From Patescibacteria group bacterium (lineage in GTDB: Bacteria; Patescibacteriota; Patescibacteriia; Buchananbacterales; SURF-54), in the NCBI GenBank assembly GCA_018818885.1, contig JAHIRB010000041.1, forward strand, positions 1 to 55,360: DNA of 55,360 nt, written 5' to 3'. Below the pieces are notes generated by a model that had not been told where the DNA came from, ran no database searches, and saw only the letters and a program-made list of their open reading frames with translations. Made by a program: the position numbers and the translations under genes. How positions within the stretch are numbered: position 1 is the first letter of the stretch; each line of letters opens with the position of its first letter. Shown piece after piece: positions 13,189 through 55,360 of the stretch.

Positions 13189-13824
13189 TCAATATTTTGC
13201 GATTATTACAAGATTTCTTTTGTTTTTTTGGCTTTTGACTATGGTAAGTCCTGCCTCTTTAATTAAATCATCTAGCTCTTTCTTACCAAAATTATGGTAA
13301 TACCGCATAACTTTTTCCTTTTTAATTCTCCAAGGAATATAATAATCACCTTTTTCAAGTTCTGTTGCTTTTTGTTTGTGCTGATAATCATCCAAATTCC
13401 AATTAGTCATTAGTAGCATGCCACCTTCTTTGAGTAATTTTTTAATGTTTTTAAGTATTTTTAATCTTAATGATTTTGATGGTATGTGATGTAAGATTGC
13501 GATCACTAAAATTTTATCAAAACTTTTTTTTGGAAGATCCAGTTTTGTGATATCTTGATTTATGAATTTATAATTTGGATACAATCCTTGAGCATTTTTG
13601 ATTAATGATGTACAATTATCTAGTCCTACATAGTTTATTTTCTTATTTTTTAGTAATGGAACTATACGCCCCTGACCGCATCCCAAATCTAAAACAGTAT
13701 CATTGTTCTTGATATATTTGATAAGTGATTTTTCTTCAGACCAGATCTTTTGTCTGACACGCGCGATGGCTGTGTAGTCTGCCTTGACTTTGTTGAGTAT
13801 TTGTGTGATTTTATTTTGATCCAT
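13189..13824 (-). CDS. SAM methyltransferase, Trm9/ALKBH8-like
   Basis: LDLGCGQGR, IAILHHIP..RL, GGMLLMTNW, GDYYIPW, RYYHNF..EL. Confidence 0.8.
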   Translation of the reverse strand: MDQNKITQILNKVKADYTAIARVRQKIWSEEKSLIKYIKNNDTVLDLGCGQGRIVPLLKNKKINYVGLDNCTSLIKNAQGLYPNYKFINQDITKLDLPKKSFDKILVIAILHHIPSKSLRLKILKNIKKLLKEGGMLLMTNWNLDDYQHKQKATELEKGDYYIPWRIKKEKVMRYYHNFGKKELDDLIKEAGLTIVKSQKNKRNLVIIAKY

Positions 13825-13966
13825 AATTTATCTTGTGATTAAGCGATGAAAGTAAAGTTTCTTATTGCGATAAAGCAATACAGTTAACTTTATCGCTCCA
13901 TCGCTCTATTGCTTAAACGTATTAACCATATTAACAGTATTTACCTTATAACATTACGTAATAACC

Positions 13967-15595
13967 ATGCCTTCCAAGCTCGAAAAAATTATTTTACAAC
14001 TAACACGCGCCGATATAAAAACCCGCGCAGACTTAGTCGTGACTAAACGAAAAATAACAAATAGCCTCAAAATACCACCTCCTCAAAATTCAGATCTTAT
14101 CAAAACCTATCGTAAGTTACTTAAAGCAAAAAAAATCAAAGAAAATAAAACTTTATTTAGTCTTTTAAAAAAACGCGAAATAAGAACTCTTTCTGGGGTT
14201 GCTCCAATAGCTGTTTTGACCAAATCTTATCCTTGTCCAGGAAAATGCATTTACTGTCCAACTGAAAATAAAATGCCCAAGAGTTATCTTTCTAATGAGC
14301 CAGCGGTAATGCGCGCAATTTTAAATAAATTTGACCCATACAAACAAGTTGAAATGAGGCTTCTTGCTTTGCAAGCAAACGGACATCCTACCGATAAATG
14401 CGAGTTGATCATACTTGGTGGTACTTGGTCTGCACTGACAAAGCCATATCAAACAAAATTTATCAAGCGCTGTCTTGATGCCATGAATAAAAAAGCTGCA
14501 GATGACTTACCTACTGCACAAAAAAGAAATGAACGAGCGAAACATCGCTGCATCGGAATTACTATCGAAACTAGACCCGATTACATTACAGTTGACGAGA
14601 TTAAGCGTTTACGAGAATTAGGCGTAACTAAAGTTGAACTAGGTGTACAAAACTTAAATGACTCTATATTAAAGATAAACAGACGCGGACATAATGTCAA
14701 ACAAACAATTCAAGCAACCAAACTACTAAAAGATACTGGATTCAAAGTAGGTTATCACTTAATGTCAAATCTGCTCGGCGCGACATTGCGATCTGATCTA
14801 GCTATGTTTAAAAAATTATTTTCTGACGATAAGTTTAAACCTGACTATTTAAAACTATACCCTTGCGTTGTAACAAAAAACACCAAACTTTTCACACTTT
14901 GGAAACAAGGTAAATATAAACCACACACAGATAAACAACTACGAAATTTGATTATCAATATTAAAAAAATAGTTCCTTATTATGTTCGCATTAGTCGCGT
15001 AATACGTGACATTCCGACAGAAAGCATAATTGCCGGTAACAAAATATCAAATTTGCGACAATTACTAGCTGATGATTTAAAAGAAAAAATGATAGTATGC
15101 AAGTGTATTCGTTGCCGTGAAGTCGGGCACCAACAAAATATTACAAACACTTTCTCCCGTCGAAGGCTCGCCTCGCTTCGCGGTCGAAGCGGACGTCTCG
15201 CCGAGACCAAACAACTGCGAATAAAAAAATATTCTGCTTCAGACGGTATTGAATATTTTTTAAGTTTTGAAAGCAATGCAGGTAAAGTTTTGTATGCATT
15301 TTTAAGATTGCGTATCCCTAGATTAATCAACTCTGACTTAACCACTTTACTACCTGAACTTGAAAATGCAGCCTTGATTCGTGAACTTCATACATATGGA
15401 CACCTAACTCCTATTGATAAAAAGGGCAAAGTTCAACATACTGGCATGGGCAAAAAATTAATGCTGGAAGCTGAAAAAATATGCAAAAAACACAATGTAA
15501 ACAAAATAACTATTATTTCAGGAGTTGGAGTTAGACCATACTATAAAAAACTTGGGTATAAGTTAGAAAATACCTATATGACTAAATCTCTCTAA
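13967..15595 (+). CDS. elp3: Elp3 radical SAM / acetyltransferase (tRNA U34 carboxymethylation)
   Basis: RTLSGVAP, CPGKCIYCP, GGTW, ETRPD, ELGVQ, CKCIRCRE, IRELHTYG, QHTGMG, ISGVGVRPYYKKLGY. Confidence 0.95.
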   Translation: MPSKLEKIILQLTRADIKTRADLVVTKRKITNSLKIPPPQNSDLIKTYRKLLKAKKIKENKTLFSLLKKREIRTLSGVAPIAVLTKSYPCPGKCIYCPTENKMPKSYLSNEPAVMRAILNKFDPYKQVEMRLLALQANGHPTDKCELIILGGTWSALTKPYQTKFIKRCLDAMNKKAADDLPTAQKRNERAKHRCIGITIETRPDYITVDEIKRLRELGVTKVELGVQNLNDSILKINRRGHNVKQTIQATKLLKDTGFKVGYHLMSNLLGATLRSDLAMFKKLFSDDKFKPDYLKLYPCVVTKNTKLFTLWKQGKYKPHTDKQLRNLIINIKKIVPYYVRISRVIRDIPTESIIAGNKISNLRQLLADDLKEKMIVCKCIRCREVGHQQNITNTFSRRRLASLRGRSGRLAETKQLRIKKYSASDGIEYFLSFESNAGKVLYAFLRLRIPRLINSDLTTLLPELENAALIRELHTYGHLTPIDKKGKVQHTGMGKKLMLEAEKICKKHNVNKITIISGVGVRPYYKKLGYKLENTYMTKSL

Positions 15596-15636: not shown

Positions 15637-16275
15637 ATGAATCAAAAAGAATTAAAAACCATAACAAATTTACTTTTTGAAAGCGGAATGCTAAAACGCC
15701 AGAAAGAAGTTGGTTCGTATTTCGCTGGCGTTGATGCAGACTCTACTAGTATCGCTGACCATATAATGCGAACCTGTTTGATCGCTTATTTTTTAGCTCA
15801 CGCTGAAGGAGCCGATCCGCAAAAATGTGTCATGATATGCCTCTTTCACGACTTACACGAAACAAGAGTTACCGATCTACCAAAAGTAGCTTCAAGATAT
15901 ATCAACAAAGATGAAGCAGAAAAGAAAGCTTTTTATGACCAAACAAAAGAATTACCAAATAAAATAAAAAAAGAAGTGAGGGAGTTGTGGTCAGAAGTTG
16001 AAAAACTAAAGACCTTAGAAGGAATAGTTGCCGAAGATGCAGATAGACTGGAGCATGCTATTTCTGCCAGAGAATATGTAAACATTGGCTATCAAGGCAT
16101 GCAAAATTGGATAAACAATGTTAAAAAAGCTGTTAATACTAATTCTGCCAAAGAATTTATAAAAATAATTGAAAAATCAGATCTTAACGACTGGTATAAA
16201 GGATTAAAAAAGTTAAACTATAAAAAAGTAAATCCAAAATCATTCGCATCAAAAAAGAATAAAAAAAATAATTAA
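15637..16275 (+). CDS. HD-domain hydrolase (YfbR/HDDC2-like)
   Basis: SIADH, FHDLHE, DADRLE. Confidence 0.85.
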   Translation: MNQKELKTITNLLFESGMLKRQKEVGSYFAGVDADSTSIADHIMRTCLIAYFLAHAEGADPQKCVMICLFHDLHETRVTDLPKVASRYINKDEAEKKAFYDQTKELPNKIKKEVRELWSEVEKLKTLEGIVAEDADRLEHAISAREYVNIGYQGMQNWINNVKKAVNTNSAKEFIKIIEKSDLNDWYKGLKKLNYKKVNPKSFASKKNKKNN

Positions 16276-16286
16276 AATATTATATT

Positions 16287-17582
16287 ATGAAAAATTTGCA
16301 AAAAAATGATCCTGCAGCATATGATGCTGTTAAGCAAGAATTAAAAAGAATTAGAGAGGGAATCGAACTTATACCATCGGAAAACTTTGTTTCTGTGAAT
16401 GTTCTAGAAGCCATGGGAACAATTTTTACTAATAAATATTCAGAAGGCTATCCTCAAAAAAGATATTATGGCGGAAACCAAGTAGTTGATATTGTTGAAC
16501 AAATGGCAATTGATCGTGCCAAAGAACTATTTGGCGCAGAACACGTTAATGTCCAGCCTTATTCTGGATCTCCTGCCAACATGGCAGTTTTTTTCGCACT
16601 TATGGAACCAGGCGAAAAGTTTATGGGACTTGATCTTAACGCAGGCGGGCATTTGACTCACGGCTCGCCAGTAAATTTTTCTGGTAAACTATTTCATTGC
16701 ATTCCATACAATGTTAAAAAAGATACTCAAATTTTAGATATGGATGAAGTTCGCGAAATAGCTTTAAGAGAGAAACCTAAAATGATTCTTTCAGGATTGA
16801 CTGCCTACCCGCGTAAATTAGATTTTGAAGCTTTCCAAAAAATTGCTGATGAAGTCGGTGCCTATCATTTTTCTGATATCTCTCATATTGCTGGGCTTTG
16901 CTCAGCTGGAGTACATCAAAACCCAGTTCCTTATTGTGATGTAGTGACTACAACAACTCATAAAACATTACGTGGTCCACGTGGTGCAATGATTATGTCA
17001 AAAATCGAAGATAAATATCACGATAAATATCATCCAGAAAGTAAAAAGAATTTAGCGGAATTGATAGATTTTAATGTTTTCCCAGGAATCCAAGGTGGTC
17101 CTCACGATCACATTACCTTAGCTAAGGGTGTAGCTTTTGGTGAAGCCTTAAAGCCAGATTTTAAAAACTATGCTGAACAAATTGTCAAAAACGCTAAAGC
17201 TCTAGCAGACGAACTAATTAGTCAGGGTTTGACTTTAGTGACAGGCGGAACTGACAATCATTTGATGGTTATTGACTTGTGTGGAAATGATCTTACTGGC
17301 AAGGGCAAAGAAGTACAAAACGCACTTGAAAAAGCAGAAATATATGTTAACAAAAACACAGTTCCTTACGAACCAGCATCCCCATTCAACCCAAGCGGAA
17401 TTAGGCTTGGTACACCTGCTGTTACTTCTCGCGGAATGACTGAAAATGATATGAAAATAATAGCTAAAGGAATTGCAGATGTAGTCAAAAATCATGAAGA
17501 CGAAACTATACTCAATGACGTAAGAAAAAGAATGCAAGAATTGACTTCGAAGTATCCGTTGTATTCGGAGTTAGATATTTAA
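16287..17582 (+). CDS. glyA: Serine hydroxymethyltransferase
   Basis: LIPSENF, NKYSEGYP..RYYGG, GGHLTHG, TTTTHKTLRGPRG. Confidence 0.98.
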   Translation: MKNLQKNDPAAYDAVKQELKRIREGIELIPSENFVSVNVLEAMGTIFTNKYSEGYPQKRYYGGNQVVDIVEQMAIDRAKELFGAEHVNVQPYSGSPANMAVFFALMEPGEKFMGLDLNAGGHLTHGSPVNFSGKLFHCIPYNVKKDTQILDMDEVREIALREKPKMILSGLTAYPRKLDFEAFQKIADEVGAYHFSDISHIAGLCSAGVHQNPVPYCDVVTTTTHKTLRGPRGAMIMSKIEDKYHDKYHPESKKNLAELIDFNVFPGIQGGPHDHITLAKGVAFGEALKPDFKNYAEQIVKNAKALADELISQGLTLVTGGTDNHLMVIDLCGNDLTGKGKEVQNALEKAEIYVNKNTVPYEPASPFNPSGIRLGTPAVTSRGMTENDMKIIAKGIADVVKNHEDETILNDVRKRMQELTSKYPLYSELDI

Positions 17583-17684
17583 GTTAATTATAGTATATTG
17601 GAGAGATTATAAAAATTAGAGTTGTCGTAATATTGTGCTCTAATCGCTATAATAACTCCAATCTCTCCAATCGCTATTGACATA

Positions 17685-18527
17685 ATGACTCAACAACAAA
17701 CAATAATCTTTGATGGTCAAAAAGCAGCCCAAAAAATCTTAGAAGAAATAAAAAGCAAAGTTTCTTCAAAAGACAAAAAACCAGGATTGGCTGCTATTTT
17801 GATTGGTGACGACAGGCCATCTCATATCTATGTTAAAAACAAAGAAAAAGCTTGTCAATTTTGTGATATCACATTTCACAAATATTTTTTAGAAGAAAAT
17901 ACACCTCAAAAAGAACTTCTTTGCTGTATCGAATTTCTAAATAAAGATCCAGATATTGATGCTATAATTGTTCAGTTACCATTACCAAAACAATTTGATG
18001 TTGAGAAAGTAATTTCTAGCATTGATCCAAAAAAAGATGTTGACGGATTTCATCCTCAAACAATAAAAGACATTATGGCTGGAAAGCCTGGTATTAATTC
18101 TGCTTTAGTGCAAGCCATCAGAGAGATCCTCAAACAAACCGAACAAGACTTAAATGGTAAAAAAATGATACTAGTTTCAAATTGCGATATTTTCTATAAT
18201 ACCTTTGTCAAAGAGCTAGAAGATTTAATGTTAGATATTGAAGTTATTTTTTCTGACAACAAAAAATTAGAACAAAAAACAAAATCAGCTGAAATTTTAG
18301 TAAGTGCTGTTGGCAAGGCAAAATTTATTACAAGAAGTATGGTAAAAAAAGACGCCATAGTAATTGATGTGGGAACAAGTTTAGTTGGTAAAAAATTTGT
18401 AGGAGACGTAAATTTTGAAGAAGTGAAAAAAATAGCATCCTTTATCACGCCGGTACCAGGCGGTGTCGGCCCTATGACAGTAGCCATGCTTTTAAAAAAC
18501 GTCTACGAACTATCACAAAATAACTAA
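17685..18527 (+). CDS. folD: Methylene-THF dehydrogenase/cyclohydrolase
   Basis: YVKNK, IVQLPLP, KDVDGFHP, ITPVPGGVGPMT. Confidence 0.95.
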   Translation: MTQQQTIIFDGQKAAQKILEEIKSKVSSKDKKPGLAAILIGDDRPSHIYVKNKEKACQFCDITFHKYFLEENTPQKELLCCIEFLNKDPDIDAIIVQLPLPKQFDVEKVISSIDPKKDVDGFHPQTIKDIMAGKPGINSALVQAIREILKQTEQDLNGKKMILVSNCDIFYNTFVKELEDLMLDIEVIFSDNKKLEQKTKSAEILVSAVGKAKFITRSMVKKDAIVIDVGTSLVGKKFVGDVNFEEVKKIASFITPVPGGVGPMTVAMLLKNVYELSQNN

Positions 18528-19970: not shown

Positions 19971-20011
19971 GTCATTGCGAGCCCAAGTGCGTACGAGGGC
20001 GTAGCAATCTC
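19971..20011. repeat. GTCATTGCGAG..GCAATCT palindrome (relatives ~36548, 52818, 54078)
   Basis: Shared (G)TCAT(T/C)(G/C)(C/T)GA..ATCT frame. Confidence 0.6.
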
Positions 20012-20168
20012 CCCGCCCGTCACAAAACAATAAACCCATACTTAAATATGACAACGCGATCTATGCTCACCTGACTCACTTAGCACGTCTCCCCCTCTTA
20101 AGATAAGAGGGGGAACAAGGGGGCGTTATGATGCTGATTATACAAAATGTTTGGGCACGCCAAAAGGA

Positions 20169-20549
20169 TTAATAAGAATTTATAAAATTACAATTTATAT
20201 CGACTTCAACAAAATGATGAGCCTGGCCAGCAATAAATTCCGGGCACTGATTCACCGGATCGTTATCTACCGCTTGTCGTGGATTGTGTGCGACATCGCA
20301 AGCCCAATCTGGAATTATTTGTCCTGAAAGGCATGGGCCAAGATTAAAGTACGCTTCACTACTCTCTATTGTTTTGACCTTACATAATTCTATACATTTA
20401 GCTCTAGCTATAGTTTCTTCGGCATCACCTTTTGCACCCACTATATTTTCTATACTACTTTGTGGTTGATCATCTCCTTGCGGAGCATGTACAAAATATG
20501 TGATAACTCCGATAACAGCGAGAACAAGTAAAATTCCAATGTATTTCAT
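20169..20549 (-). CDS. Secreted Cys-rich hypothetical protein
   Basis: N-terminal TM; GPCLS..WACDVAHNPR..D..NQC..HHFVEVD..C. Confidence 0.75.
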   Translation of the reverse strand: MKYIGILLVLAVIGVITYFVHAPQGDDQPQSSIENIVGAKGDAEETIARAKCIELCKVKTIESSEAYFNLGPCLSGQIIPDWACDVAHNPRQAVDNDPVNQCPEFIAGQAHHFVEVDINCNFINSY

Positions 20550-20621
20550 ATATTTAACAACTCTACTAACTCTATCTCCTTTAGCTAATATTTAGTTCAT
20601 CTCTATATCGCTCTTTCCACT

Positions 20622-21083
20622 TTACTTCTTGCTCTTAAATATCAACCAATTTTTTCCTTCTAAATTAAACAAAACGTAATTACCCTTTAGCTTTTTTCCT
20701 GCCAGTCTAAATTTTAAAGATTTTTCTCCAATATCTAGTAGCTGATATTTACCCTTGTCAAAAATTTTAACTGTCCCTGCTCCGTACTCCCCTTTAGGAA
20801 TAACTCCTTTAAAATTGATGTACTCAACAGGATGATCTTCTACTGCTACAGCCAGATGTTTTATGCCAAAATCCTGTGGCACGCCTTTGGGTACTGCCCA
20901 AGACTTCAAAACAATATCTCCAGTTACAACATCTTCTGGCAGCTCCAACCTAAAATCATAGTGTAAATGTGAGGCTTGATGTTTTTGAACCACAAAACGC
21001 CAAAGATTTTTTTTTGCAGATTTACCAGAAGGCTCGGGAGTTTTGGTAAACTTCCGTTTTGACTTATACTTTTGCAAAGCCAT
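20622..21083 (-). CDS. Stand-alone LigD 3'-phosphoesterase domain protein
   Basis: FVVQKHQASHLHYDFRLE, LKSWAVPKG, EDHP, GEYGAG. Confidence 0.92.
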   Translation of the reverse strand: MALQKYKSKRKFTKTPEPSGKSAKKNLWRFVVQKHQASHLHYDFRLELPEDVVTGDIVLKSWAVPKGVPQDFGIKHLAVAVEDHPVEYINFKGVIPKGEYGAGTVKIFDKGKYQLLDIGEKSLKFRLAGKKLKGNYVLFNLEGKNWLIFKSKK

Positions 21084-21086
21084 AAT

Positions 21087-21374
21087 CTAAACTTTTAGAT
21101 AAACTACATCTCCTTCTTTGACTGGTTCGGAAACCTTGAGACCGACAGCATCACCTTTTTTGGCTGCTTGAACTTGTTCATGTTCTACCTGCATAGAATC
21201 TACTGGTTGTTCAAATTCTTGCCCACGGCCATTTACAACGATGGTATCACCAACCTTTAGGCCAGCTGTAAGTTCTACAACAGCAACACCGATCTTGCCA
21301 AAGTAATGCGTTATCTTTCCAATTTCCTTACCAGGAGGAGCTTGTTGTTCTTCTGTAGTTTTTTCTTCTGCCAT
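21087..21374 (-). CDS. Translation-factor-like beta-barrel protein (U32 C-terminal-like)
   Basis: IGKITHYFGKIGVAVV..LKVGD..VDSMQ..A.KGD.VGLKV..V.EGD.VY. Confidence 0.8.
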   Translation of the reverse strand: MAEEKTTEEQQAPPGKEIGKITHYFGKIGVAVVELTAGLKVGDTIVVNGRGQEFEQPVDSMQVEHEQVQAAKKGDAVGLKVSEPVKEGDVVYLKV

Positions 21375-21469
21375 ATGATTTTAGTTAATAAAGATAAATT
21401 TTTTTGGGGCTTACTGCTTATACAACACTAACTTTTCCGCTTAACTATTGTAGCAAATATTAAACAAAA

Positions 21470-21505
21470 GAAAAAGCCCCGCAAACCACAGTGTGGTTTG
21501 CGGGA
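21470..21505 (-). terminator. Terminator after purC
   Basis: CCCGCAAACCAC..GTGGTTTGCGGG with U tract on the minus strand. Confidence 0.75.
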
Positions 21506-21519
21506 CCAGTTAGCCTCGA

Positions 21520-22449
21520 TTAGGCTACCATCGCGAGATCGATCGAACCCCACGCTTCGGCGAATGCCGTGTATCGTCGTGCTCCCTCCATAAGCACACT
21601 TTCGGAGAAATCGGGATAGAACGGAACTTCCTGCTTGAGCCTGCGGGCTTCATCCACTATATCTTTGTAACCCATAGCGATGAGCGCCTGGCGGAAGTAT
21701 TCTTTGCCCTGATGTTCTATTCTTCCTTCGTTTTCCAGTGCAGCCAGCTCAAAAAAACGATCTTCGTCTTGGGTGTGCCACACATCTCCCAACATAGGTA
21801 TGCGTTGAGGACCAACAAGAGCCACTTCTTTCTTGCCGTCACAGTAGGCGTAGCCGAGCTGACGAGCGAGGGCGGCTGCAATGCCGTCGTAACGATTGAT
21901 CATCGCCCATATTCTTCCTTGAAGGATGGGGTCAATGCTGCACATGAGCATTGCTTCTTCGTTGCTCAGCTCGCGGTCGGTTTCTTCAAACTTGGTCGTA
22001 GCATGGTTTACTGGCCACGGTAGTATTGTGCCTTCCGGCGGCACGCCTTGAGTAGGATCAAAACCATAATCCTCGAGCTTCTTTTTGCCAGACAGCAAGT
22101 CACGGAGAAGGCTTCCCGAAAGCAGATAGCGGGTAATCCACTCGACAGGCAGGATGCAATTGGTGTCTTCCTCGGTCAATGGTCGGCCGAGGATGACATC
22201 GAATTCCCTGACCAATATTTTGGTATCGGTCAACTGTTTGATGAAGGCGGTGGGAATACCGAACCATTTCGCGATCATGGCAGACTTAACCGCCACCGTG
22301 CATATTGCCGCTCCCTTACCGGGAATTTCCTGTTTGGTTCGACCGACGTCGAAGCCCGAAATGTAATTGACAAAATCAAAACCAATTCCTCCGTCTTCAC
22401 GCGTAATATCCTTCGCGCTTCCTTCTCTTGGTATTACTAACCCTGACAT
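21520..22449 (-). CDS. purC: SAICAR synthetase (divergent)
   Basis: EGSAKDI, ISGFDV..IPGKG, PVEWITRYLLSGS, TTK, DGKKE, DEDRF. SD before ATG 22449. Confidence 0.88.
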   Translation of the reverse strand: MSGLVIPREGSAKDITREDGGIGFDFVNYISGFDVGRTKQEIPGKGAAICTVAVKSAMIAKWFGIPTAFIKQLTDTKILVREFDVILGRPLTEEDTNCILPVEWITRYLLSGSLLRDLLSGKKKLEDYGFDPTQGVPPEGTILPWPVNHATTKFEETDRELSNEEAMLMCSIDPILQGRIWAMINRYDGIAAALARQLGYAYCDGKKEVALVGPQRIPMLGDVWHTQDEDRFFELAALENEGRIEHQGKEYFRQALIAMGYKDIVDEARRLKQEVPFYPDFSESVLMEGARRYTAFAEAWGSIDLAMVA

Positions 22450-22468
22450 CTTTACATCACCTTCCTCT

Positions 22469-23005
22469 CTATTGCTGTTCCTTGAGTTTCTTTTCCGCGT
22501 CTTCGATTGCTTCCTCCAGACTGCGATCAACGGTTGAACGTGACTCCGGCTTCTTTATTTCTGGAAATTCTCCATTGACCGCAAACGCACAAGCTTCGAG
22601 AAAGCCCATCTCACCGATAAAATCATTAAAGACGACTTGTGTTCCAGGAACACACGTGATGCTCAGAATCGCTGCTCGGTTCAATTCCGACTGATCGGCT
22701 TCGAATGCTACTCCGATAAAAGTGGTTTTAATGTCATTGAGGACATATCGAGCATAGGCTTCCAGTGAACCTGTCAAATGATTCGCGTGACCTGCGCCGA
22801 GAATCCAAGCGTCGATCTTTCCGAGCCAATTCTTGATTGTCTCACGTGACTCATCTTGATTCCGATGAAAACTCGAGGTTTTAAAAATCTTTACCTCGAC
22901 CAAGCCTTCTTTTTCTACTTCTCTGAGATACTTAAGACCTCGTAAGCATTGCGGCAGATCGCTATCTGAGCCGATCATAATTCCGACTTTTCTGACCTTT
23001 GCCAT
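22469..23005 (-). CDS. purE: AIR carboxylase / N5-CAIR mutase family (divergent)
   Basis: VGIMIGSDSDL, SSFHR, GAGHANHLTG, FIGV. Confidence 0.85.
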   Translation of the reverse strand: MAKVRKVGIMIGSDSDLPQCLRGLKYLREVEKEGLVEVKIFKTSSFHRNQDESRETIKNWLGKIDAWILGAGHANHLTGSLEAYARYVLNDIKTTFIGVAFEADQSELNRAAILSITCVPGTQVVFNDFIGEMGFLEACAFAVNGEFPEIKKPESRSTVDRSLEEAIEDAEKKLKEQQ

Positions 23006-23006
23006 A

Positions 23007-23078
23007 CTATTCCTCCTCGGATACTTCTTCCTTGCTTAGGTTTGGATCAAGTGGCACAAACAACCATTTTCGCTTCAA
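23007..23078 (-). CDS. 23-aa small ORF coupled to purE (MKRKWLFVPLDPNLSKEEVSEEE)
   Basis: AAAGGAG SD, TTG start, TAG 1 nt before the purE ATG. Confidence 0.4.
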   Translation of the reverse strand: MKRKWLFVPLDPNLSKEEVSEEE

Positions 23079-23123
23079 GCTATCAACTCCTTTCTGTAGT
23101 GGTGTGATTAATTTTCATAGAGC

Positions 23124-23198
23124 AAAAAAACTCTTTCCTCCCTGGAAAAGAGCCCTCCTTGTGATTAGTATCTTATATAAAATCGTTAATTTAGTCAA
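23124..23198 (-). promoter_or_regulatory. purEC promoter plus leader terminator-like hairpin
   Basis: TTGACT-17-TAAGAT, then GGAGG-GCTCTTTTCC-AGGGA-GGAAAGAG-T7. Confidence 0.65.
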
Positions 23199-23204
23199 TT
23201 ATAA

Positions 23205-23238
23205 GAGGGCAGGTCTGCTTTTTGCAGTACCTGCCCTC
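23205..23238 (-). terminator. Hairpin after the purH C-terminal gene
   Basis: GAGGGCAGGT..ACCTGCCCTC. Confidence 0.65.
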
Positions 23239-23258
23239 GATATTTTTTCCTCCGTGGT

Positions 23259-24329
23259 TTAGTGTCCGAAAAAACCTCTCATTTCGGCGTCCGGTTTCAT
23301 ATACAGAGTTACACCGTGCTTCTCGCACAGCGCGATGATTTTTTCGTCGTTGATGGAACCACTGGTAGCGAATATCGCCCGTATGCCCGCATCGATCAAA
23401 ATTTGAGGGCCATCCCTAAATGGGAAAAAGCTGTCGCTATCTGCAACCACCGGTGCACCCGGATCATGGAGTACGTGATTTGCATCCCTGGCCAACCAAA
23501 CAGCCAAGTGGCAAGCAATGTAACTCGCCTGCTGTCCAGCACCATTGCCGACAAGTTGTCGACCCTTTACCAAGGTAATGGTATTGCTGTTGGATGTGGC
23601 GTTGATTGACCGGCCGAAAAGCAGTGCCTCTTCGTACTTTGAATACGGTGTACCGTAGATTGCCAAACCAGGGTCGTTGAAATTCAAAACCGAACTATAG
23701 GCATCCTGGTCAAGAAATCCTTTTCGCACTGGTCGAATTACTGACTCTGTGTCCATACATTGGCCATGAAGATTTTCCAATGCTGGATTAACAATCAAAC
23801 GGCATTTTCCCGACTTACGCGACAAAATATTGACCGCATCTATCTCGAAGCTTGGTGCTATTACGGTATCAAGCTGTGCTTTACCCTCTATTAGCAGAGC
23901 TTGTGCGATCTCTTTGGTACACTTCTGGTTCATGATCACCGAACCACCAAATATCGCTAGAGGGTGACCCGCCATCATCAATCGCGCGGCTTCAGCGAAA
24001 TCTTCGTCCATTTCACACCACGCTGCACCACATGGATTTCCATGTTTCACTCCGATAATTATTTGAGCTACTTTGAGCTCATTTACCCAACGGGCAGTAG
24101 CATAGTGTGCCATGGTGGCGACAAGGCGATCGGTGTCACACCAATTGTTGAAACTGCGATCGCTACCTTCCTGTATCAAGAAGTTTGCCATTGCCAAAGG
24201 ATCTTTGGTGTGGTCGGGGCCGTCTTGTGTTGAAAAAAGACTCGCGCCCTTTTGATCCTTGTTTTCACCATATTTACATCGATCGACTTGTTTTCCCGAA
24301 ATTGTTACTTCTATTCCATCATCAATCAT
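23259..24329 (-). CDS. purH: AICAR transformylase (PurH C-terminal domain as a separate gene)
   Basis: KYGEN, VKHGNPCG, GAGQ, SDSFFPFRDG, GSIND. Own SD-like purine run and ATG 24329. Confidence 0.88.
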   Translation of the reverse strand: MIDDGIEVTISGKQVDRCKYGENKDQKGASLFSTQDGPDHTKDPLAMANFLIQEGSDRSFNNWCDTDRLVATMAHYATARWVNELKVAQIIIGVKHGNPCGAAWCEMDEDFAEAARLMMAGHPLAIFGGSVIMNQKCTKEIAQALLIEGKAQLDTVIAPSFEIDAVNILSRKSGKCRLIVNPALENLHGQCMDTESVIRPVRKGFLDQDAYSSVLNFNDPGLAIYGTPYSKYEEALLFGRSINATSNSNTITLVKGRQLVGNGAGQQASYIACHLAVWLARDANHVLHDPGAPVVADSDSFFPFRDGPQILIDAGIRAIFATSGSINDEKIIALCEKHGVTLYMKPDAEMRGFFGH

Positions 24330-24348
24330 TTTCTTACCTGTCCTTTCC

Positions 24349-24957
24349 TTAGTTTCTTTGCGCTGCCAGATAGCCAGCGATTGCGCGGTCGTATTGCTCG
24401 GTGTGCTCGAAAACTTCGCAGGCCAGCTTGTACCGGAGTTCTTCCGGAATCGTTCCCTTGCCTTTTTCCAGCGCCACGGCGATCTGCTGATACCTGTCGG
24501 GATTGCAGATGACGACGACGTCGCGATAGTTTTTGGCCGCTGCCCGAAGCATAGTCGGACCACCGATGTCGATCTGCTCGATTGCATCTTCAAGCTTGAC
24601 ACCTTCTTTCGCGACTGTTTCCTGAAACGGATACAGATTGACGACGACGATGCTTATTAGACTGAGGCGACGTCTTCTCATGGCTTTCATGTGTTCTATG
24701 TTTTCACGTTTAGCCAGAATGCCGGCGTGAATTTTCGGATGGAGAGTTTTTACCCGTCCGTCCATCATCTCCTTGAAACCTGTGAAATCCGCCACCTCGC
24801 GAACCGGTATTTCCGAATCATCGAGCCTTGTTGCTGTGCCGCCTGTCGATAAGATGCCATCGACATTTCCGTATTTGAGAATGGCTTCAGCTATAAACTC
24901 AACATCTTTTTTGTCTGAAACGCTGATTAATTTCCAGTTTGGTAGTACGATATCCAT
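24349..24957 (-). CDS. purH: IMP cyclohydrolase (PurH N-terminal MGS-like domain as a separate gene)
   Basis: LISVSDK, STGGTA, DGRVKTLHPKIHAGILA, VNLYPF, IDIGGPTMLRAAAKN. Confidence 0.93.
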   Translation of the reverse strand: MDIVLPNWKLISVSDKKDVEFIAEAILKYGNVDGILSTGGTATRLDDSEIPVREVADFTGFKEMMDGRVKTLHPKIHAGILAKRENIEHMKAMRRRRLSLISIVVVNLYPFQETVAKEGVKLEDAIEQIDIGGPTMLRAAAKNYRDVVVICNPDRYQQIAVALEKGKGTIPEELRYKLACEVFEHTEQYDRAIAGYLAAQRN

Positions 24958-24975
24958 GTTCTTTCTTCTCCTTTC

Positions 24976-26409
24976 CTAGACAGTAAGCCTAAGTTTTCGT
25001 TCTGCCTCTTTCTTAGCCAGCTTGACACAATCGCCAATATACTTCTCTGGATTTTTCATCAGCTTCTTTATGTTTTCGTCCACTCCTTCCCATGCCAACT
25101 GAAGATCTGGTGACTCCGATCCATTCTTAATGATCAGCTCTACATTTGTTGCCAAATCATCACCAAACATCTTTGCCTGAGGAATTAATAATTTGTTTAC
25201 AAACTGATGAGAATCCTTGAGTCCAGAATGCTGCAATGCCAAATGCATCAGCTCGGCCATAACCACATACATGTCTTCTTCGAAATTTACTCTTGCGCGC
25301 TCGTGGTCGAACTTGAAGGATTTGAAAATCCTCTTGGCAGTTTTTAGCTGCTGGAAAACATATACCAGTATGGCAGAGTAATCCCGCATAACGCAGGAAT
25401 TACGCAGATCCCTTTGCAGATCACTAACAAGATTCAGCAAAGGTTTACACAGTTCAGCAAAAGTGAGAATCTGCATCCCGGCGATGTTTTCTCCGGCTAT
25501 TGGATTTGCTTTCTTGTGAGCCATTGTAGAAGAAGACGATGACGCTGAAAGGACTTCACCAAACTCAGGAGCCTGCAAAATCCTAATATCTTCTCCCAGC
25601 TGAGCTAACGACCCAGAAAGCATGTAGCTTTCAAACAAAAATCGTGTAATTGCCTCAGGCGGGGGTATTTGGGTTGAAATTCTAGGCTGTGCAACACCCA
25701 TCATTTTCAACGCCTCTTCTTCGTAATCTCCTGCCTGACTGATCAACACCCTTCCGGCAGCTTTTGAACCCACTGCTCCAGAAAACTTGCCCAAAAGCTG
25801 GCCATTTCGTCTTGCCATCTCGGACACGTTATCGAAAAACCTTGCATGCGCAGAGGCTAACCAAAACCCTGCGGTTATGGGTAAAGCATGTTGAATATGC
25901 GTTCTACCCATTTGTATATACTCTGCGGTTTCTGCAATCCTTTGTCGCCACAGTTCATCAACTTCCAATATCATCGGCACAAAAGCCTTATTAAAAGTGT
26001 ATTTATACTGCAGGCTATAAGCCGTACTGATGACATCATACGAGGTTAATGAATAGTGCAGCCACTTGTGCAATGGCTCCGGCATAGCGGCTCTCATCAG
26101 CTGAAGCAAGGCTAAAATGTCGTGTTTTAGCTTGTCTTCAACTTTATCCATCTGGCTTGTTGTTATTGCCAACACCTTAGCAAAGTTTTCTTTTGTCAGA
26201 TGCTTAGCGTCTTCTTCGGGCATAATCCCCTTTTTGGCCAGAAACAACAACCACATCCATTCAACGATTACTAACCAAGTTGCCCATGTTCCATATGCGA
26301 GATACATCAGCAACTGCTCTGGCTGATAACGAGGGTTACCAGGCATGTCCTTACGACGTCCCAGAGTTTCAGAAGCTACCCTTAATGCAAACTCTATCAA
26401 ATCTCTCAT
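24976..26409 (-). CDS. purB: Adenylosuccinate lyase (divergent)
   Basis: KHD, HYSLTSYD, MGRTHIQHALP, SGAVG, SSTMAHKKANP, RDLRNS. Confidence 0.9.
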   Translation of the reverse strand: MRDLIEFALRVASETLGRRKDMPGNPRYQPEQLLMYLAYGTWATWLVIVEWMWLLFLAKKGIMPEEDAKHLTKENFAKVLAITTSQMDKVEDKLKHDILALLQLMRAAMPEPLHKWLHYSLTSYDVISTAYSLQYKYTFNKAFVPMILEVDELWRQRIAETAEYIQMGRTHIQHALPITAGFWLASAHARFFDNVSEMARRNGQLLGKFSGAVGSKAAGRVLISQAGDYEEEALKMMGVAQPRISTQIPPPEAITRFLFESYMLSGSLAQLGEDIRILQAPEFGEVLSASSSSSTMAHKKANPIAGENIAGMQILTFAELCKPLLNLVSDLQRDLRNSCVMRDYSAILVYVFQQLKTAKRIFKSFKFDHERARVNFEEDMYVVMAELMHLALQHSGLKDSHQFVNKLLIPQAKMFGDDLATNVELIIKNGSESPDLQLAWEGVDENIKKLMKNPEKYIGDCVKLAKKEAERKLRLTV

Positions 26410-55237: not shown

Positions 55238-55262
55238 TATAACAATCCCCGCCATCACCCAT

Positions 55263-55334
55263 GCCCCTGTAGTTCAACGGATAGAACAAGGGCCTTCTAA
55301 GCCTTAGATATAGGTTCGATTCCTATCGGGGGCA
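55263..55334 (+). tRNA. tRNA-Arg(TCT)
   Basis: Acceptor GCCCCTG/CGGGGGC, anticodon loop CTTCTAA, GGTTCGATTCC; CCA not encoded. Confidence 0.95.
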
Positions 55335-55360
55335 TAGGTGATGGCAGCCGTAAGTTGTCC

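Follow-up and report, generated by a model that had tools for sequence, protein, structure and literature searches.

A divergent elp3–methyltransferase gene pair of Patescibacteria points to a probable Trm112-free, archaeal/eukaryote-type route to mcm5U34

Introduction

How do bacteria of the candidate phyla radiation (CPR) modify C5 of the wobble uridine (U34) of their tRNAs? In the view of textbooks and reviews this is the task of MnmEG in bacteria and of Elp3 and Trm9 in archaea and eukaryotes. The question is raised anew by a locus on contig JAHIRB010000041.1 of a Patescibacteria group bacterium (assembly GCA_018818885.1), whose 55,360 nucleotides, taken at full length, are referred to here as the window. 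At this locus a gene for Elp3 lies head to head with one for a class I S-adenosylmethionine (SAM)-dependent methyltransferase, and the original prediction, made from the sequence alone, had read the two as a minimal wobble-modification system of the kind known from eukaryotes and archaea. Judging from sequence comparisons, we consider it likely that the pair would provide a minimal two-enzyme route of archaeal/eukaryote type to 5-methoxycarbonylmethyluridine (mcm5U34) and its 2-thio form (mcm5s2U34), free of Trm112 and used in place of MnmE/MnmG. The window is one of the 51 contigs of a genome of 1.35 Mb that is 98.6% complete; its closest protein relatives carry Parcubacteria or Patescibacteria names, and its DNA is present in groundwater metagenomes, with no RNA run listed as containing it.

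The divergent gene pair and its Elp3 component

The methyltransferase, a Trm9-type class I enzyme of 211 amino acids (aa) and a predicted tRNA (carboxymethyluridine(34)-5-O)-methyltransferase, is encoded by an open reading frame (ORF) on the minus strand (13189..13824), and Elp3, with 542 aa, by one on the plus strand (13967..15595). Between both start codons lies a divergent intergenic region of 142 bp (13825..13966), which must hold both promoters. In their coordinates, divergence and 142-bp gap the two genes are exactly as first described. The description of Elp3 as complete also stands: the ORF matches TIGR01211 with 560.2 bits (cut-off 350) over model positions 4–522 of 522 and has the full-length architecture of a radical-SAM domain followed by a GNAT/KAT domain, with Pfam matches to Radical_SAM, Radical_SAM_C and Acetyltransf_10. 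Among solved structures it matches the archaeal MinElp3 (6ia8) with 431 bits over residues 50–542 and the bacterial DmcElp3 (5l7j) with 400.7 bits over residues 69–541. A CxxxCxxC motif is found at C90/C94/C97 and a QHTGMG motif at residue 490; going by general knowledge of radical-SAM and GNAT proteins, we take the former to supply the Fe-S cluster cysteines and the latter to be the acetyl-CoA-binding motif. The N-terminus is strongly basic, residues 1–70 comprising 20 K/R and 5 D/E, and the first ~68 residues, which form this basic extension, are without a counterpart in DmcElp3. They are similar to the N-terminal extension described for archaeal and eukaryotic Elp3 in the accessible part of PMC6367351, where tRNA-induced acetyl-CoA hydrolysis by DmcElp3 is also reported, the one activity of a bacterial Elp3 documented in the literature examined. 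By family membership, the window protein is a predicted synthase of 5-carboxymethyluridine (cm5U) at position 34.

Relationship of the methyltransferase to Trm9

Public annotation has the methyltransferase as a 'class I SAM-dependent methyltransferase' or as UbiE-like. It stays below the cut-off of every NCBIfam model, and its Pfam matches are to generic domains only (Methyltransf_31/11/25). Such names and domains would suit an ordinary class I methyltransferase, unrelated to Trm9, that has come to lie next to Elp3 by accident. Sequence comparisons point to a more specific kinship. The best match in the PDB is chain 5cm2_Z, the Trm9 of Yarrowia (YlTrm9), whether the single sequence is used (E 2.3e-15, 59.9 bits; next 47) or a profile of its family (102.9 bits; next 82.7). 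For profile comparisons we used an alignment of 40 members of the CPR methyltransferase family (A1) and a eukaryotic Trm9/ALKBH8 profile (A2), in which 18 of 120 listed proteins so named, collected starting from ALKBH8, were aligned. Searched against all six frames of the source genome, A2 matched nine genes, with the window methyltransferase at 124.4 bits (profile positions 21–230 of 233) and the eight other methyltransferase genes all at 30.5 bits or less, so that by this search it is the sole Trm9-like gene of the genome. Aligned to each other with hhalign, A1 and A2 gave a probability of 100% (E 2.1e-49, 203 columns). With YlTrm9 as the closest solved sequence, a near-certain profile alignment and a single Trm9-like gene in the genome, the proposed comparison with Trm9 has turned out in favor of the relationship. 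That the enzyme is an unrelated methyltransferase in accidental proximity is thus highly improbable: the 94-bit gap that separates it from the other methyltransferases of its own genome under the eukaryotic profile, the conservation of Trm9-specific C-terminal motifs, and the conserved linkage and co-occurrence described below all stand against it.

A search among longer proteins returned, after 11 CPR fusion proteins, eukaryotic ALKBH8 proteins that span the whole domain (P0282, 122 bits, 100% coverage). The fusions themselves (P0269–P0278 and P0199; 469–542 aa) join a Trm9-type methyltransferase, matched at full coverage with 180–245 bits, to PF03808, a WecG/TagA-type glycosyltransferase domain that one would not expect to find joined to a tRNA methyltransferase.

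At the level of motifs, all four that had been likened to Trm9/ALKBH8 are present in the window protein, but in three of them the spacing had been given too short. They should read IAILHHIP....R (four intervening positions, not two), GG.L....W (four, not three) and RYYHNF...EL (three, not two), and DYYIPW is exact at residue 160. The SAM-binding core has LDLGCGQG at residue 45, and D69 is aligned to D83 of YlTrm9 and to D72 of the yeast enzyme (ScTrm9).

An AlphaFold2 model built on A1 (pLDDT 93.5, pTM 0.90) has the Rossmann-type methyltransferase fold, and in a Foldseek search of the PDB it again retrieves 5cm2_Z first (E 3.3e-17, TM 0.83 by target). This fold is common to methyltransferases of many specificities, and the model agrees with Trm9 without being specific to it. 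In the ESM Atlas the first named structural neighbor from outside the CPR is a fungal cluster called 'tRNA (carboxymethyluridine(34)-5-O)-methyltransferase' (TM 0.85/0.79), which we treat as a lead only. The same applies to its language-model features, by which the nearest named clusters are methyltransferases of giant viruses (Nucleocytoviricota) and of DPANN archaea (Nanobdellota), with scores of 0.98.

A maximum-likelihood tree of 48 rows was computed with IQ-TREE from 18 of the 40 A1 members, three CPR and three archaeal ORFs drawn from the loci, ten eukaryotic Trm9, six ALKBH8, six paralogues from the source genome and two PEAMT C-terminal domains (one further paralogue, L006, was left out because it and L007 are one and the same ORF). 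Support is 50–56 on the branches by which the outgroup methyltransferases are placed, and the outgroups do not fall on one side of a branch; two of the own-genome paralogues, L005 and L007, with branch lengths of 3–4, shift their position. Taken as a whole, the tree speaks neither for nor against a Trm9 clade. Two archaeal placements are of separate interest. A Heimdallarchaeota homologue (L100, 1757–2350) branches as the sister of eukaryotic Trm9 and ALKBH8 together (support 98/90), and in its genome a Trm112-type frame of 149 aa is found as well as an Elp3 (650 bits). A contig from a metagenome-assembled genome of a Pacearchaeota (DPANN; L085) carries the same divergent pair, with the methyltransferase at 2126–2761 and Elp3 at 245–2079; no Trm112 was found in that genome, and its methyltransferase nests inside the CPR group of the tree (94/90). 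This pair could be the product of gene transfer between CPR and DPANN or come from a mis-binned contig.

Linkage and co-occurrence with elp3

The original prediction noted the proximity of the two genes. We examined its conservation in a sample of 401 Patescibacteria genomes, one per species, evenly drawn and including the source genome, with A1, Elp3 TIGR01211, MnmG TIGR00136 and Trm112 PF03966 as queries. The methyltransferase was scored as present at an A1 match of at least 100 bits, and two genes as adjacent if their matched parts lay at most 1500 bp apart. Elp3 was found in 151 of the genomes (148 of the 151 matches over the cut-off). The methyltransferase accompanies it in 116 of these and is missing from 35; among the 250 genomes lacking Elp3 it occurs in 5 and is absent from 245. 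Four of the five genomes with the methyltransferase alone belong to a single family and have a completeness of 74–78%.

In 93 of the 116 two-gene genomes the genes are adjacent, all 93 times in divergent orientation, with 83 of the pairs within 300 bp and a median gap of 145 bp. In seven genomes they share a contig at a greater distance, with divergence retained in five (at 1.5–3.9 kb), and in the remaining 16 they lie on different contigs, where the arrangement cannot be judged. Given that the divergent layout recurs in 93 of 116 genomes, the pairing goes far beyond chance. At a threshold of 99 bits there are 94 adjacent pairs, distributed over 43 of the 59 Elp3-bearing GTDB families, which bears out the presumed conservation of the linkage to elp3. 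A further draw, not independent of the first since it used the same species collection, yielded Elp3 at 67 of 80 loci, with 66 divergent and one co-directional (in a Gracilibacteria genome); in 3 of the 13 loci lacking Elp3 the upstream DNA was shorter than 1 kb. The pair is not accompanied by a conserved third gene: in these 80 loci the HD-domain gene found next to Elp3 in the window recurs in none, and the 382-aa membrane protein that adjoins the methyltransferase in 7.

The 35 genomes with Elp3 and no methyltransferase indicate that Elp3 is evidently able to work alone. They are concentrated phylogenetically, 18 of 34 at the 99-bit threshold falling in a single GTDB family (f32). In three loci of this family (L131–L133; genomes G174, G237 and G017) Elp3 stands head to head with nucleoside diphosphate kinase (NDK). 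The Elp3 neighbors in genomes without the methyltransferase family comprise NDK, an LPG-synthase C-domain protein, a DeoC-type aldolase and a SLOG protein, none of them a methyltransferase.

Conservation of the catalytic residues

The accessible text of Letoquart et al. 2015 (PMC4678810) names eight residues of ScTrm9 whose alanine mutants abolish function in vivo: R29, D72, H116, W145, W168, R241, Y243 and N271. In an alignment to YlTrm9, with the numbering checked against Table 2 of that article as far as available, all eight are present in the window methyltransferase. Across 94 Elp3-adjacent homologues, the equivalent of R29 (R40 in YlTrm9, R24 in the window protein) is kept in all 94, those of D72 (D83, D69) and W145 (W156, W142) in 93 each, and those of H116 (H127, H113) and N271 (N222, N204) in 90 each. 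W168 (W179, W165) is kept in 82, with F or Y in 10 more, and R241 (R192, R174) in 83, being lost in one subclade. The sole soft spot is the equivalent of Y243 (Y194, Y176), which varies across the family: it is kept in 48 of the 94 homologues and replaced by F in 17, and the adjoining Y175 is conserved instead (88 of 94).

The variable Y243 position bears on a further explanation, namely that this is a methyltransferase of the Trm9 lineage with another target—some other Elp3-dependent intermediate, a different tRNA position or a small-molecule carboxylate—such that the Elp3 product would stay cm5U or become 5-carbamoylmethyluridine (ncm5U). The 35 of 151 Elp3 genomes that do without the methyltransferase, the NDK that takes its place as the divergent neighbor of Elp3 in f32, a fold shared by many specificities and the tree support of 50–56 would all be compatible with such a role. 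We nevertheless think it decidedly unlikely. Seven of the eight residues required by ScTrm9 for substrate binding or catalysis are kept in 82–94 of the 94 Elp3-adjacent homologues, the family is nearly confined to genomes with Elp3 (116 with as against 5 without), and a strict head-to-head layout across 43 families is hard to explain unless both proteins act in a shared pathway.

The absence of a recognizable Trm112

The original prediction had raised the possibility that the methyltransferase is independent of Trm112. A search with PF03966 did not find Trm112 in the source genome; the same search was positive in 7 of 14 control genomes, including that of Escherichia coli. In the Patescibacteria sample PF03966 has matches in 23 of 401 genomes, mostly within frames of ~300 aa, and in 8 of the 116 genomes with the pair (5 over the cut-off), so that no Trm112 domain was found in the other 108. 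Both results agree with the supposed independence. Five extra genomes were reached via the loci: those of Heimdallarchaeota and Thermoplasmata have small Trm112 frames, and in those of Pacearchaeota, Gracilibacteria and Altimarinota PF03966 was not found. The failure to find Trm112 lowers the standing of a Trm9–Trm112 holoenzyme and not that of a Trm9-like function.

The Trm112 matches in family f32 were considered as a possible fused form of Trm9. This was rejected: the protein concerned (L126:741–1667, next to ksgA) is a methyltransferase of 308 aa that ends in a Trm112-like zinc ribbon, and its alignment to Trm9 is confined to the generic Rossmann portion (residues 13–139).

The residues of YlTrm9 in contact with Trm112, as listed in the accessible portion of PMC4678810, were mapped by hand on an alignment at ~25% identity. 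The hydrophobic contacts V59, F78, V102, A110, P112 and F116 correspond to T43, N64, I88, D96, P98 and F102 of the window protein, and the polar contacts E100, E113, R115 and D117 to K86, K99, S101 and D103. Half of the hydrophobic Trm112-contact patch would accordingly be polar in the window protein.

These data also bear on the idea that we are dealing with a true Trm9-type cm5U methyltransferase that is not autonomous and needs a small Trm112-like partner missed by PF03966. In eukaryotes, Trm9 deprived of Trm112 is neither soluble nor active, according to the excerpts available from PMC4678810; the PF03966 model is short, with 40 positions, so that a Trm112 could be missed or be replaced by an unrecognised partner; and, of the six hydrophobic residues at the YlTrm9 interface, three (V102, P112 and F116) have hydrophobic counterparts in the window protein (I88, P98 and F102). 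We regard a hidden partner as rather unlikely all the same, in view of the negative searches of a 98.6%-complete genome and of 108 of the 116 pair genomes, the polar character of the other three positions (T43, N64 and D96), the two acidic contacts that have become lysines (K86 and K99), and the lack of any third gene that travels with the pair. Most likely, the methyltransferase works without Trm112, unlike the eukaryotic and haloarchaeal Trm9.

The predicted pathway to mcm5U34 and its place among U34 modifications

We propose the following scheme for the Trm112-free Elp3–Trm9-type route. Elp3, as expected from its family, would use acetyl-CoA and radical SAM chemistry to place a carboxymethyl group on C5 of U34, producing cm5U. 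The Trm9-type enzyme, to go by its homology, its conserved catalytic residues and its conserved linkage, would then carry out the SAM-dependent O-methylation of the cm5U carboxyl to give mcm5U. On the Lys, Glu and Gln tRNAs, MnmA would add the 2-thio group and thereby yield mcm5s2U; the source genome does encode MnmA (363 bits), away from the pair. The likely substrates are the U34 tRNAs of the split codon boxes. Among the 48 tRNA genes of the source genome these are Arg UCU (three genes), Gln UUG (two), Glu UUC, Gly UCC, Leu UAA and Lys UUU.

One of the tRNA-Arg(UCU) genes lies in the window itself (55262..55335, plus strand; ARAGORN, with an Rfam tRNA match of 71.3 bits) and had been brought forward in connection with the pair. 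The gene is real, and its product, which has U34 and belongs to a split codon box, is a candidate substrate; located ~40 kb from the pair and being one of three copies in the genome, it carries no information on linkage.

The tRNA complement has two other features of note. There is a tRNA-Ile(UAU) gene, unusual for bacteria, and the anticodon CAU is reported by ARAGORN for no more than two tRNA genes (C5:638–711 and C13:15167–15443 are the coordinates concerned), which suggests that AUA may be read by a U34 tRNA and not by a lysidine tRNA. ARAGORN also calls a 93-nt 'tRNA-SeC' with the anticodon UCA (contig C27:528–620), a candidate selenocysteine tRNA, UGA suppressor or Trp-type tRNA.

The Elp3–Trm9-type pathway would stand in for MnmE/MnmG, neither of which was found in the source genome: MnmG (TIGR00136) gives only a fragment match of 22 bits, and the best match to MnmE (TIGR00450) has 99.6 bits against a cut-off of 252.6, covers the GTPase domain only and falls on Der-type GTPases. 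Of the 401 sampled genomes, 11 have MnmG, 151 have Elp3 and none has both, as anticipated by the proposal of an anti-correlation with mnmG. The remaining 239 genomes have neither Elp3 nor MnmG, so that no known enzyme for C5 of the wobble uridine is seen in most of the phylum.

Several observations weigh against this pathway and should be set beside it. Family models and domain databases see in the methyltransferase only a generic enzyme; the Y243 equivalent is variable and that of R241 lost in one subclade; the branches that place the outgroups in the tree are poorly supported; the Trm112 model is short enough for a partner to escape it; and 35 of the 151 genomes with Elp3 have no methyltransferase. 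In addition, what builds up in trm9 mutants of yeast is ncm5U and not cm5U, as stated in the accessible part of PMC5699542, and the true substrate of Trm9 is therefore itself debated. With all this taken into account, we still hold the Trm112-free route to mcm5U34 and mcm5s2U34 in the source organism to be the likely one. The more sweeping proposition—that in Patescibacteria the mcm5(s2)U34 pathway is the main C5 modification of the wobble uridine, with an autonomous module of Elp3 and a Trm112-free Trm9 replacing MnmEG—we regard as evenly poised.

The shared promoter region and the gene neighborhood

The head-to-head layout suggests that both genes are co-regulated from the shared 142-bp region. 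This region contains a perfect 9-nt inverted repeat (13867–13875 and 13888–13896, with a 12-nt spacer). A scan for sigma-70 consensus sites returned 13 in the region as compared to a mean of 12.7 in shuffled sequences, and we therefore assign no promoter. Further imperfect palindromes surround the 9-nt repeat, and a 13-nt direct repeat is seen at 13917 and 13956.

Beyond Elp3 and on the same strand, a gene for a YfbR-like HD-domain phosphohydrolase begins 41 bp past its end, followed by two ORFs that, from inspection of their translations, we take to be glyA (431 aa) and a folD-like gene (280 aa), the three together occupying 15637–18527. Elsewhere in the window, positions 20001–26000 differ in composition, with a G+C content of 0.42–0.47 as against ~0.33–0.36 in the rest. 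This segment is occupied by large minus-strand ORFs of 336–477 aa, and an Rfam scan found no rRNA or other Rfam family in it.

Implications

If the pathway operates as proposed, mcm5U and mcm5s2U would join the modification repertoire of bacteria, and a correct annotation could be given to thousands of proteins that at present go by 'class I SAM-dependent methyltransferase' or 'UbiE'. It would also bear on the relation of the CPR translation apparatus to the archaeal one. A small and probably self-sufficient Trm9 would be of use for structural and mechanistic work, the eukaryotic enzyme being insoluble without Trm112. Finally, Trm9 might originally have been a stand-alone enzyme, with the dependence on Trm112 a later trait of archaea and eukaryotes; this idea may be set beside the tree, in which the Heimdallarchaeota and Thermoplasmata relatives, whose genomes carry Trm112, group with eukaryotic Trm9.

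Comparison with known systems

The nearest characterized counterparts of the methyltransferase are the Trm9–Trm112 complex of Yarrowia and yeast (5CM2) and, in animals, the methyltransferase domain of ALKBH8 together with TRMT112. It shares with them the N-terminal helix of the TR.KPW type, the HH after strand 4, the W..(E/N) and PW motifs, the C-terminal RYYH and N motifs and the eight residues essential in ScTrm9, and as in those systems the genome also encodes Elp3. It differs in its ~25% identity, in its size of 211 aa, without the yeast insertion and without the RRM and AlkB domains of ALKBH8, and in its setting: a bacterial host, a gene head to head with elp3, a genome in which Trm112 was not found, and polar residues at half of the hydrophobic Trm112 contacts.

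The archaeal systems are closer in organization. They, too, have a stand-alone Elp3 without Elp1, 2, 4, 5 and 6, a basic N-terminal extension and a clustering of elp3 with trm9, which the available part of PMC6144793 describes for Sulfolobus solfataricus; the same text, where bacterial Trm9 goes unmentioned, reports that the Trm9 of Haloferax volcanii (HvoTrm9) binds Trm112. Unlike HvoTrm9, the CPR enzyme occurs in genomes in which Trm112 was not found (this one, and 108 of 116 with the pair), and the two non-DPANN archaeal genomes checked that have related methyltransferases, from Heimdallarchaeota and Thermoplasmata, do have Trm112.

Within bacteria, the window Elp3 resembles that of Dehalococcoides mccartyi (5L7J; 400.7 bits), which, unlike it, is without the N-terminal extension, the alignment starting at query residue 69. 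In the accessible text of PMC6367351 DmcElp3 is called 'a rare example of bacterial Elp3s', in contrast to the 151 of 401 Patescibacteria genomes that have Elp3, and an excerpt of PMC13315578 speaks of 'numerous bacteria' that conserve it. No downstream methyltransferase is named for DmcElp3 in the literature examined. A review states, in the portion available, that no bacterial genes resemble Trm112-dependent methyltransferases (PMC5372719), and in full-text literature, a scope that leaves aside subscription journals and supplements, neither a bacterial Trm9 nor the CPR Elp3–methyltransferase pair was found to be described.

The route of MnmE–MnmG (with MnmC) to (c)mnm5U34 is similar in that it targets C5 of U34 in the split-box tRNAs and has MnmA as the partner thiolase. 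Its enzymes and chemistry are unrelated to those proposed here, and in the sampled genomes it is mutually exclusive with Elp3 (11 with MnmG, 151 with Elp3, 0 with both). As such, the pathway is known, and so are both enzyme families; what appears to be new, as far as the literature can be searched in full text, is their regular occurrence in bacteria in a form free of Trm112.

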